Below, piece by piece: positions 3,028 through 16,857 of a DNA stretch of 17,125 nt. Origin of the DNA: a virus (taxonomy: Duplodnaviria; Heunggongvirae; Uroviricota; Caudoviricetes). Where the stretch lies: the IMG/VR virus record IMGVR_UViG_2671180283_000013; one strand, 5' to 3'. A program made the translations under genes and the position numbers. The notes beneath the pieces are model-generated. The model did no database searches. It saw nothing but the letters and a program-made list of their open reading frames with translations, and was not told where the DNA came from. Each line of letters starts with the position of its first letter. Positions within the stretch are counted from its first letter, which is position 1.

Positions 3028-3603
3028 TTAAGGATTCATTAAGCAATGTCGCAACCACCAATAAATCCGCTTAAGAACATGAAAATTGATTACTGGTATA
3101 AAGCGCTTACAGTTGTTGGCGCTGCGTTGTTTGTCTTTAATGGAACGTCTTTTTTTGACAGATATCCCGTTGTTCCATTGGGTTTTTTGTCCTCCGGCAT
3201 CTTTTTTATTGGTTTGGGGGAGTGGATTAATCACCCTCTCAAAGTGAGATTTATTGGCCCTGGAGTTTGGACTCGTGGATATAATCGTTCTTCGTGCGCA
3301 CTCGGTATCATCTTCGACATACTTGGTTGTTTCCTGATTGTTACAGGAGTCGTCAAGTTCTTCTGATGTAAAACCGCAAATGGGGCACGTAACGGGAATT
3401 TTGAAAAGCGTTTCTCCGGGTTCCAGAACAAAATTTTCTGCGGTCTGATTTTGCTTCTCATATTTGTGCTCCGCGTCATTGTGAGAGCACATTCTTATTC
3501 TGAGTGCCTGTTTAAACTCACTGAAGCTGAGAGCTTCTTCGCCTTCGGCAAGGCCTTCGAAGTATTCTTCGTAAGCCTTTTCCATGATTGTGTCGAAATC
3601 CAT
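3028..3603 (-). CDS. Acidic small protein, YdfB/YdfC-like by position; only the first 40-85 codons look like real protein, the rest of the open frame is probably antisense read-through
   Basis: ATG at 3603-3601 lies 1 nt after the ydfA-like stop (TGAtATG coupling). N-terminus MDFDTIMEKAYEEYFEGLAEGEEALSFSEFKQALRIRMCSHN is protein-like. No in-frame stop occurs until 3028, so the frame overlaps the plus-strand membrane gene at 3046-3366. The true 3' end is unresolved. Confidence 0.35.
   Translation of the reverse strand: MDFDTIMEKAYEEYFEGLAEGEEALSFSEFKQALRIRMCSHNDAEHKYEKQNQTAENFVLEPGETLFKIPVTCPICGFTSEELDDSCNNQETTKYVEDDTECARRTIISTSPNSRANKSHFERVINPLPQTNKKDAGGQKTQWNNGISVKKRRSIKDKQRSANNCKRFIPVINFHVLKRIYWWLRHCLMNP
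3046..3366 (+). CDS. Small integral membrane protein, 106 aa, embedded in opposite orientation in the early-left operon (same position as sieB in lambda/Rac; family unverified)
   Basis: ATG at 3046 with AAGGA about 11 nt upstream. Three clear hydrophobic helices (YWYKALTVVGAALFVF, VVPLGFLSSGIFFIGLG, CALGIIFDILGCFLIVTGVV). The overlapping minus-strand frame is K/R/N-rich, as expected for the antisense of a membrane-protein gene. Confidence 0.55.
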   Translation: MSQPPINPLKNMKIDYWYKALTVVGAALFVFNGTSFFDRYPVVPLGFLSSGIFFIGLGEWINHPLKVRFIGPGVWTRGYNRSSCALGIIFDILGCFLIVTGVVKFF

Positions 3604-11625: not shown

Positions 11626-12052
11626 TCAGAAGTACGTCTTTTTCTGAAAGAATACGTGATAGGTAGCCACACCACACCTTTAGTGACCCCTTAATCTGGT
11701 AATATAACAGCCCGTATGAATGTCCGCGGCATCGCGGGCTGAAATTTATTAAAAATACTTATTCATCAAGCTGGAGTAGTTTGCCGAGTAACTGTAAACG
11801 CCCAACTTAACCGGACCATTCACTTTTAGATTGCTACCAGCAAACCAACTTCCGTTTCTCGCTCAAAGCGGACTAGAAGGTTAGCTTGCGTCGGACTTGG
11901 CGTATTTAAAGAAGTGCTGGTGGTAACTGGTTGTTGTGTTCCATTTCTACAAAACAAAATCACAGAAACTATACCCAATAGTTATATTGAATCAATGATG
12001 AGACAGCCTCATATTTATCAGAACTGGTGTACGTCCAATACAGGAGGTTGTC

Positions 12053-12142
12053 GTGCTGGTTCTCAAATGTGCGCTAGCTATTGCGGCTGTAATGGCAATT
12101 TATTGTCTTGCTATTGTTCTTACGGATCGCCTTTCTGATTGA
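12053..12142 (+). CDS. Candidate 29-aa hydrophobic membrane peptide (type I toxin-like): MLVLKCALAIAAVMAIYCLAIVLTDRLSD
   Basis: GTG at 12053 sits 5 nt after a consensus SD, AGGAGG at 12042-12047. Single TM helix with a charged tail. Not in the ORF track (below length cutoff). An alternative overlapping frame, 11914-12138, gives a 74-aa Cys-rich product. Confidence 0.4.
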   Translation: MLVLKCALAIAAVMAIYCLAIVLTDRLSD

Positions 12143-12353
12143 TTTTATATTGGCGAGGTGACGGGAGTTAAGTAGAATTGCTGCGGGTGCTTGAGGCTAT
12201 CTGCCTCAGGCATGAACACCAAAGGCAGATAGAGAAAAGCCCCAGTTAACATTACGCGTCCTGCAAGACGTTTAACATTAATCTGAGGCTCAATCTATGA
12301 ACGGCAAATCTAGGTTAGCCTCTTACGTGCCGAAAGGCAAGGAGAAGCAGGCT

Positions 12354-12509
12354 ATGAAGCAGCAAAAGGCGATGTTAATCGCCCTGATCGTCATCTGTTT
12401 AACCGTCATAGTGACGACACTGGTAACGAGGAAAGACCTCTGCGAGGTACGAATCCGAACCGGCCAGACGGAGGTCGCTGTCTTCACAGCTTACGAACCT
12501 GAGGAGTAA
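12354..12509 (+). CDS. hokD: Hok/Gef-family type I toxin, HokD(RelF)-like, 51 aa
   Basis: Translation MKQQKAMLIALIVICLTVIVTTLVTRKDLCEVRIRTGQTEVAVFTAYEPEE is near-identical to HokD from memory. SD AGGAG lies 9 nt upstream. The track ORF from 12297 is an in-frame upstream extension. Confidence 0.85.
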   Translation: MKQQKAMLIALIVICLTVIVTTLVTRKDLCEVRIRTGQTEVAVFTAYEPEE

Positions 12510-12576
12510 GAGACCAGGCGGGGGAGAATCCCTCGCCACCTCTGATGTGTCAGGCATCCTCAACGCACCCGCACTT

Positions 12577-12600
12577 AACCCGCTTCGGCGGGTTTTTGTT
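12577..12600 (+). terminator. Rho-independent terminator after hok
   Basis: AACCCGC-TTCG-GCGGGTT stem-loop followed by TTTTTGTTTTTATTTT. Confidence 0.7.
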
Positions 12601-15640: not shown

Positions 15641-15716
15641 GGCCCTTTAGCTCAGTGGTGAGAGCGAGCGACTCATAATCGCCAGGCCGCTGGTTCAAAT
15701 CCAGCAAGGGCCACCA
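15641..15716 (+). tRNA. tRNA with CAU anticodon, most like tRNA-Ile2 (lysidine type) rather than elongator Met
   Basis: Cloverleaf folded by hand: acceptor GGCCCTT/AAGGGCC, D-arm GCTCAGTGGTGAGAGC, anticodon loop CTCATAA, T-arm with TTCAAAT, 3' ACCA encoded. Anticodon arm (GCGACTCATAATCGC) resembles E. coli ileX as I recall it. Confidence 0.85.
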
Positions 15717-15723
15717 TCACATA

Positions 15724-15800
15724 CCGCCATTAGCTCATCGGGATAGAACGCCAGCCTTCGAAGCTGGTTTCGCGGGGTTCGAGTCTCCGATGGCGGTCCA
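15724..15800 (+). tRNA. tRNA-Arg (anticodon UCG)
   Basis: Anticodon stem CCAGC/GCTGG with loop CTTCGAA, T-loop TTCGAGT, acceptor CCGCCAT/ATGGCGG, CCA encoded. One mismatch in the D-stem. Confidence 0.75.
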
Positions 15801-15813
15801 TTATCGGTATTCT

Positions 15814-15890
15814 GCGTTTTTAGCTCAGCCGGACAGAGCAATTGCCTTCTAAGCAATCGGTCACTGGTTCGAACCCAGTACAACGCACCA
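15814..15890 (+). tRNA. tRNA-Arg (anticodon UCU)
   Basis: D-arm GCTCAGCCGGACAGAGC, anticodon stem ATTGC/GCAAT with loop CTTCTAA, T-loop TTCGAAC, CCA encoded. One acceptor-stem mismatch. Confidence 0.8.
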
Positions 15891-16656: not shown

Positions 16657-16857
16657 TTTTTTTGTTTGCTGTTTATTAAAAACACTTCTGCATGGTGAAT
16701 CCCCCTGTGCGGTGGGGCAATCAGCAAGAAGGAATATGGGGTAATCGCGGATTCAGGTGCTGATACTGAATTCACCGGGAGGCACCCGGCACCATGCTTT
16801 GCCACAAAAGTGTTATTTCTGTTTTTCTCAAACTATCATCGTTATCCCTTTATTTTC

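Follow-up and report, generated by a model that had tools for sequence, protein, structure and literature searches.

Small membrane proteins of around 30 residues are known from two settings that bear on the locus described here. Type I toxins (Hok/Gef, Ldr, TisB, Ibs, ShoB, ZorO, DinQ) are carried on mobile elements and consist of a single hydrophobic helix, whereas the small membrane regulators of Escherichia coli (MgtS, AcrZ, MgrB, PmrR, CydX) are core-genome proteins of ~30 residues with one transmembrane (TM) helix. We have analyzed a stretch of 17,125 nucleotides (nt) deposited as IMG/VR virus record IMGVR_UViG_2671180283_000013 (hereafter the window), which corresponds to a Qin-like lambdoid prophage of E. 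coli. A short open reading frame (ORF) lies at positions 12053 to 12142 on its plus strand, directly upstream of the hok toxin gene. Our sequence comparisons make it likely that this ORF is a genuine gene, unannotated in RefSeq and separate from the hok unit, encoding a 29-residue single-pass inner-membrane microprotein. Across homologous loci, the reading frame, start position, Shine-Dalgarno (SD) sequence, and −10 element all bear the marks of selection, as does a TTGnnn −35 element in most types, and the peptide itself is under purifying selection. The 29-amino-acid (aa) peptide resembles the small regulators in length, in its single TM helix, in what seems to be an ordinary SD-driven mRNA, and in conserved in-helix residues suggestive of partner binding, but it shares no homology with them and resides on mobile elements rather than in the core genome. 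An ordinary membrane-embedded small protein that works by helix packing is the reading that we favor, with a type I-like toxin or a modulator of Hok at lower odds.

The ORF opens with a GTG at 12053, spans 29 codons, and closes with a TGA at 12140 to 12142. It is preceded, at a spacing of 5 nt, by the consensus SD sequence AGGAGG (12042 to 12047, plus strand). The DNA around it reads acAGGAGGttgtcGTG and its product is MLVLKCALAIAAVMAIYCLAIVLTDRLSD. This peptide has a grand average of hydropathy (GRAVY) of 1.73, rising to 2.58 in the best 19-residue window, and is predicted to be a single-pass membrane protein with a short N terminus containing K5, an apolar helix of ~19 residues, and a tail of sequence (T/M)DRLSD. 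The N terminus is probably inside and the C terminus outside. The original prediction, made from the letters of the window alone, described an AGGAGG 5 nt before GTG 12053 and a 29-aa hydrophobic ORF, overlapped in a different frame by a 74-aa ORF (11914 to 12138), both upstream of hok; as a description of the layout, including coordinates and hydrophobicity, this is confirmed. Taken alone, the window contains two instances of AGGAGG followed by a start codon and an ORF of ≥25 aa, where dinucleotide shuffles give 0.68 ± 0.84. Since this is not beyond chance, the significance of the ORF rests on comparative data.

Homologs were collected by two scans of IMG/VR, using independent exact patterns inside the ORF, and were combined with RefSeq loci to give 139 full-length copies including that of the window. 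The GTG, the 29 codons, and the TGA are preserved in 138 of these, and in the remaining copy the stop codon has been replaced by Cys, which yields a 31-aa product. The GTG start is universal in the prophage form of the ORF. One further copy, at the locus that we labeled L255, has lost its SD sequence (AGAAAG) and is broken by a 2-nt deletion, and looks like a gene decaying as a unit. In a sample anchored on hok, and thus unbiased as to the ORF, 17 of 17 copies of the 29-aa ORF are intact. The 29-aa type comprises 35 DNA haplotypes and 25 protein variants, and the replacements are all conservative (V3A, C6Y, A7T, I10V, A11T/V, A12V, V13I/L, M14V/I, C18F, A20V, V21I, M24T, D25N/E, R26H, L27F, and S28T). 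Outside the codons constrained by the search patterns, 9, 6, and 13 variable sites fall on the first, second, and third codon positions, a three-base periodicity that is found in this frame only. Synonymous alleles number 18 of 38, against 11.5 expected for the same numbers of transitions and transversions (P = 0.008, a modest value because divergence within the type is small). There is no synonymous excess in the other two frames (10 and 7 of 38 alleles), one of which gains stop alleles. The pooled ratio of nonsynonymous to synonymous polymorphism (pN/pS) is 0.37 in the 29-aa frame versus 0.66 and 0.81 in the other two. Conservation and synonymous-site analysis hence agree that the 29-aa frame is selected, and its SD sequence and start are conserved with it among ~140 homologous loci. 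The SD-driven membrane-peptide ORF that had been picked out beside hok emerges from this comparison as a real, selected coding sequence.

More distant relatives extend this picture. A tblastn search of plasmids identified a homolog on the Shigella invasion plasmid pINV, located on pWR100 at complement 90908 to 90997, which encodes the 29-aa peptide MLVLKGTLAIAAVMTIYCLIVVLMERFSD (UniRef A0A0M1UIT1; Prokka CP037924_00134). This protein is 79% identical to the peptide of the window and is itself identical in 134 plasmids, from all four Shigella species and enteroinvasive E. coli (EIEC). It shares with the window ORF its length and its layout of promoter, SD sequence, and ORF, with an AGGAGG and a TTGAGT-17-CATATT promoter. 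It differs in having an ATG at the position of the GTG, in lying on a virulence plasmid next to icsP, in being followed by a mere remnant of the hok leader, and in lacking a start site in differential RNA sequencing (dRNA-seq). Relative to the prophage consensus, the pINV copy carries nine synonymous and seven replacement changes, which correspond to a synonymous divergence (dS) of ~0.6 and a ratio of nonsynonymous to synonymous divergence (dN/dS) of 0.20. Downstream, a hok promoter and leader are recognizable but decayed and truncated (3090 to 3215 of locus L273), and are followed by icsP. A decayed hok remnant is thus present on the Shigella virulence plasmid, inside the long upstream region of icsP.

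The second relative is a 34-aa paralog, MSDDISLVMEGALAVIAVVGVYCLVVFLMERLGN, annotated in RefSeq as "hypothetical protein" (WP_001278460.1; UniRef A0A0K4ZJX7) and equally uncharacterized, which occurs at 1465 places in 669 genomes, notably those of O157:H7. It is 54% identical to the 29-aa peptide over 28 residues aligned without gaps, the two having ALA..AV...YCL.V.LM(D/E)RL in common, with a dS of ~1.4 and a dN/dS of 0.25. Like the 29-aa type, it is SD-driven and sits directly upstream of the hokD promoter in lambdoid prophages; unlike it, it starts with ATG, has five additional N-terminal residues (MSDDI), has no predicted promoter of its own, and is separated from the hok promoter by a different spacer. 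Residues L2, L8, A9, A12, V13, Y17, C18, L19, and L23, within the apolar helix, are invariant across the family, and the boundary M(D/E)(R/H)(L/F) is conserved. The small residues at a spacing of approximately three (A9, A12, and A/G15) may form a packing face, as we infer from their placement.

Upstream of the ORF we predict a sigma-70 promoter on the plus strand (11987 to 12015), composed of a −35 TTGAAT (11987 to 11992), a 17-nt spacer, and a −10 CATATT (12010 to 12015), which would place the transcription start near 12021 and give a leader of ~30 nt. The −10 CATATT is unchanged in 39 of 39 upstream haplotypes, and the GGAGG core is kept in ~36 of the 39, with GGAGA and GGGGG as variants and outright loss only in the decayed L255. 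The arrangement of TTGnnn, 17-nt spacer, and CATATT at −66 to −38 from the start codon is shared by the main type, KY208/HannyBb, OZ0387, L256, and pINV, and among these types the spacer and the ~30-nt leader vary freely. In divergent types, identity to the window is ~65% over promoter and leader versus ~90% over the ORF, and rises sharply at the start codon. Together, these comparisons provide good evidence for what appears to be a working promoter and ribosome-binding site.

A noncoding stretch of ~135 nt (11851 to 11986), delimited by comparison of prophage loci, travels with the main-type locus, and homology to other prophages begins at ~11851 to 11859 irrespective of the gene upstream. 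Since that position is occupied in different prophages by unrelated genes (a NACHT protein, a DUF4209 protein, a LysR regulator, QueH, and unrelated hypotheticals), it corresponds to a variable cargo slot, which in the window holds a gene for a hypothetical protein of 326 aa (WP_023147794.1; 10645 to 11625, plus strand). This protein has no match in Pfam, NCBIfam, or PADLOC, and is possibly the product of a defense or moron gene. The stretch itself is replaced by unrelated DNA in the KY208, OZ0387, L256, and E. albertii types, all of which keep the ORF. It also carries 14-nt and 1-nt indels, shows no folding signal on either strand (z-score ~+0.3), and has no Rfam match. Exactly at the left edge of homology lies an imperfect inverted repeat (11851 to 11872; TCCGTTT...AGCGGA, consensus GTCCGCT-n9-AGCGGAC), whose left arm falls in otherwise nonhomologous DNA, yet is complementary in several loci. 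No T-run follows it on either strand, and it could be a recombination junction or a hairpin without a terminator.

We propose that, in the lysogen, the gene would be read from a sigma-70 promoter of its own (TTGAAT, 17 nt, CATATT) with the short leader described above, and that the AGGAGG-N5-GTG arrangement would allow efficient translation. Transcription would probably continue over the hok promoter into the hok unit. With less certainty, and by analogy with the small membrane regulators, the peptide may work within the membrane, its helix contacting a helix of a partner protein or of a second copy of the peptide.

Several points weigh against this proposal. Any function, like any partner in the membrane, is proposed by analogy only. 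The −35 element has been lost from the 11 loci of a "TCTCAT" variant and from the E. albertii type. For the 34-aa paralog, no promoter is predicted; it probably rides on the early-right transcript of the phage. In a published dRNA-seq table for pWR100 of S. flexneri M90T, the pINV copy has no start site in front of it, and the closest entries are the icsP starts at 90709 and 90726. Because of these gaps, the start at ~12021 must be regarded as a prediction. On the coding side, the 38 alleles represent little divergence within the type, the sampled loci are related and recombine, and both pattern anchors lie inside the ORF, so that badly decayed copies are undersampled. Moreover, the 3′-terminal ~25 nt of the ORF move together with the hok promoter, and part of the conservation of the ORF may consequently be regulatory. 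A literature search with peptide strings and accessions, covering ribosome profiling, tagging, and mass spectrometry, turned up no mention of the peptide and no expression data. A ribosome-profiling (Ribo-seq) preprint on CFT073 reports novel small membrane proteins; in the available parts of it, and of a preprint on prophage Pas small RNAs (sRNAs), nothing on the 29-aa ORF was found.

The strongest competitor of an ordinary small membrane protein, albeit an unlikely one, is that a second type I module has the peptide as its toxin, which would damage the membrane and be held down by an antisense or divergent small RNA that has escaped our view. As in type I toxins, the peptide is small (<60 aa) and hydrophobic, with a single predicted TM helix and a charged tail. 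In addition, its neighbor on the mobile element is a bona fide type I toxin, as many as five copies of the ORF occur in one genome, and in the prophage form it always starts with the weak GTG. However, its helix is uncharged, Ala-rich, and not amphipathic, and it has no sequence similarity to known type I toxins in Pfam or NCBIfam; the 29-aa, pINV, and 34-aa peptides do not match the Hok/Gef family of Pfam at E values up to 10. Nor does the mRNA resemble that of a type I toxin, in which a long or structured leader sequesters the ribosome-binding site. The predicted leader is short and leaves the AGGAGG exposed, and leader plus ORF, when folded for ten haplotypes, do no better than shuffled sequences (z-scores of −0.8 to +1.4) and share no structure. 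The ~135 nt farther upstream are devoid of folding signal and are swapped wholesale in four types.

The evidence is no better for an antitoxin RNA. Searched at a permissive threshold, Rfam returned the hok leader and nothing else between 11650 and 12650. Promoter-like sites occur at 12171..12142 and 11995..11968 of the minus strand, and one such site recurs near −58/−85 in several unrelated upstream types, which can be counted in favor of a type I module. The first of the two, which overlaps the hok promoter, lacks conservation in pINV and in loci without hok; no minus-strand promoter is common to all types, and we found no terminator. A hypothetical divergent RNA from 11995..11968 would show no excess complementarity to the mRNA (duplex z-scores of −1.3 to +1.3). 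The only direct repeat, the 8-nt GTGCTGGT at 11914 and 12053, was considered as a pairing site and rejected, because its length is that expected by chance and because it is naturally deleted in intact loci: a 14-nt deletion (GAAGTGCTGGTGGT; equivalent to 11928 to 11941; mEp460-type loci, among them L007 and L011) removes the repeat and leaves both ORF and hok intact. The search for antisense control suggested with the original prediction has therefore returned, at the level of sequence, neither a conserved antisense promoter nor a complementary RNA, and with no structured leader either, type I status is unsupported. The peptide may yet be toxic, and it is its membership in the type I class that these results lower; action as a classic toxin under antisense control is improbable.

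The second alternative concerns hok itself. The window contains a hok/mok/sok type I unit on the plus strand (12185 to 12594), with a leader from ~12185, mok from 12297, hok at 12354 to 12509, and a terminator at 12577 to 12594. The Rfam model of the hok/sok leader (RF01794) aligns to 12185 to 12359 with 111.7 bits, and the hok coding sequence matches the Pfam family HOK_GEF (PF01848) at 5e-24. A scan for sigma-70-like promoters places the hok promoter at 12150 to 12178, with TTGGCG at 12150 to 12155 and TAGAAT at 12173 to 12178, 17 nt apart. The small ORF ends at 12142, 8 nt before this −35 element. Since its stop codon precedes both the promoter and the 5′ end of the hok mRNA (~12185), it is not in the hok leader, and the suggestion that it might be part of that leader fails; it also occurs at loci without hok.

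Still, the 29-aa peptide might be functionally tied to Hok, as an antagonist or immunity factor, as a cofactor, or because its transcription or translation tunes hok expression, an idea to which we give somewhat less credit than to the type I toxin. In its fullest form, which we rate no higher, the 29- and 34-aa peptides would be the protein layer of the prophage hok module. They would be cotranscribed with hok and would antagonize or potentiate Hok in the inner membrane or set the activity of the hok promoter by read-through, with a second job kept on the Shigella virulence plasmid after the loss of hok. Both types do sit directly upstream of the hok promoter, with their stop codons 8 nt and ~50 nt, respectively, from the −35 element, and a member of the family is found at 23 of 80 loci in the hok-anchored IMG/VR sample (17 of the 29-aa and 6 of the 34-aa type). 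There is no convincing terminator between 12142 and 12577, and read-through from the small-gene promoter into the hok unit may accordingly occur. The two are nevertheless separable. Most hok copies, and more than half of the hokD loci, have no family member, whereas ~10 prophage loci, in which the ORF is followed by genes other than hok, and all pINV plasmids hold an intact ORF without a functional hok. Furthermore, modular recombination generally preserves the order of genes in lambdoid phages, which makes adjacency by itself weak evidence.

At some hok loci, all that is left of the ORF is its final ~7 codons, joined to the hok promoter (12120 to 12163 in the window; L283, L298, and O157 copies). 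Because many hok copies retain just these codons, recombination breakpoints would lie inside the ORF near codon 23. In one type with such a remnant, an AAGGAG has newly appeared 7 nt ahead of the retained ATG (M24), creating a six-codon mini-ORF, MDHLSD.

Other small segments encoding membrane sequences are also found in front of hok. We considered a general rule that small membrane ORFs precede hok, and withdrew it because a 27-aa ORF ending in ...VYSICRWG turned out to have exactly the sequence of the C-terminal membrane tail of 185-aa DUF551 proteins. In many prophages (L279 and 16 further loci), ~41 nt separate the end of this segment from the start of the hok mRNA, and the segment also occurs upstream of the ORF in L010. 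In L274 (2371 to 2448), its frame differs from that of the annotated upstream gene and it begins at an ATGA overlap, suggesting that either the DUF551 gene is frameshifted there or the tail is translated separately. In another prophage type (L284 and five other loci), a two-helix "membrane protein" of 59 aa (MKNALQFLFVAFWLF...VFMAVMCIEYWR), present on >1000 contigs, stops 89 nt short of the start of the hok mRNA.

It is very improbable that the ORF is fortuitous and that its DNA is conserved as a noncoding regulatory part of hok or through recent common descent. Prophage copies do show low overall divergence (89 to 100% identity), the 3′ end cotravels with the hok promoter, the SD sequence and ORF do not exceed chance expectation within one window, and neither the literature nor the pWR100 dRNA-seq table yielded expression data. 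Against this, only the 29-aa frame displays three-base periodicity, and its replacements are conservative. Frame, SD sequence, and start have persisted at a dS of ~0.6 in pINV and ~1.4 in the 34-aa paralog, with dN/dS values of 0.20 to 0.25. The ORF also outlives hok where the latter has decayed or is absent, and identity jumps at the start codon.

The overlapping frame fares differently. The 74-codon Cys/Gly/Ser-rich ORF (11914 to 12138, plus strand), in which GTG 12053 falls on codon position 2, begins with a GTG that has no SD sequence in front of it. Its length ranges from 23 to 154 aa over 138 loci and is exactly 74 aa in 34 of them, and the 14-nt deletion and 1-nt indels in its N-terminal half shift the frame. 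It is closed in pINV and absent in the types with a replaced upstream region. Synonymous alleles are depleted (7 of 38 versus 11.2 expected), its pN/pS is the 0.81 mentioned above, and its product has no family match in profile libraries including Pfam. By these comparisons, the 74-aa frame is not coding but a by-product of composition, and the "dual-frame" part of the original prediction does not hold. That both frames are translated has next to no probability, even though the longer one is open in the window and at 34 of 138 loci and the overlap is free of stops in every copy.

The locus is widespread and has mostly been missed by annotation. A segment of 316 bases (11850 to 12165) has 2997 matches, distributed over 2514 of the 5426 complete E. 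coli genomes searched (about half), with the multiple copies per genome already mentioned. Among the RefSeq E. coli records listed or examined, none has a gene annotated over the 29-aa type, and exact-sequence look-up shows that some submitters have named the ORF "membrane protein", "hypothetical protein", or "conserved hypothetical protein" (E. coli B REL606, BL21). Searches of Pfam, NCBIfam, PHROGs, and PADLOC with all peptide variants gave nothing significant. Only four deposited phage genomes carry the locus (Evi, Tritos, mEp460_ev081, and HannyBb). A scan of species-representative genomes (GTDB) with a 16-base pattern was saturated by chance matches, the real ones being E. albertii, E. 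ruysiae, and three short misbinned contigs of metagenome-assembled genomes. Judged by sequence, the family belongs to lambdoid prophages of Escherichia and to pINV of Shigella and EIEC. YlcH of DLP12, considered as a relative, was ruled out by its sequence.

The window also holds, besides hokD, the genes rem, rusA, a DUF968 gene, and the Q antiterminator gene. A copy of the DicF RNA lies at 2716 to 2767 on the minus strand, as found in a search of Rfam and window features. A cluster of three tRNAs follows the Q gene (15641 to 15887, plus strand), and downstream of it is an RNA of the STnc100 family (16661 to 16833, plus strand), whose position is of the same kind as that of the prophage Pas sRNAs described in a 2026 preprint.

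Our findings expose an annotation gap, with the locus present in about half of complete E. coli genomes, the 34-aa paralog in 669 more, and a copy next to icsP on essentially all Shigella and EIEC invasion plasmids. The dual-frame appearance of the locus, for its part, is not biological. Where prophage hok/sok or the icsP upstream region is studied by deletion, a selected membrane-protein gene may be removed or truncated as well. The locus is a compact candidate for a prophage-encoded membrane effector, which may be a toxin, a modulator of Hok, or an exclusion factor.

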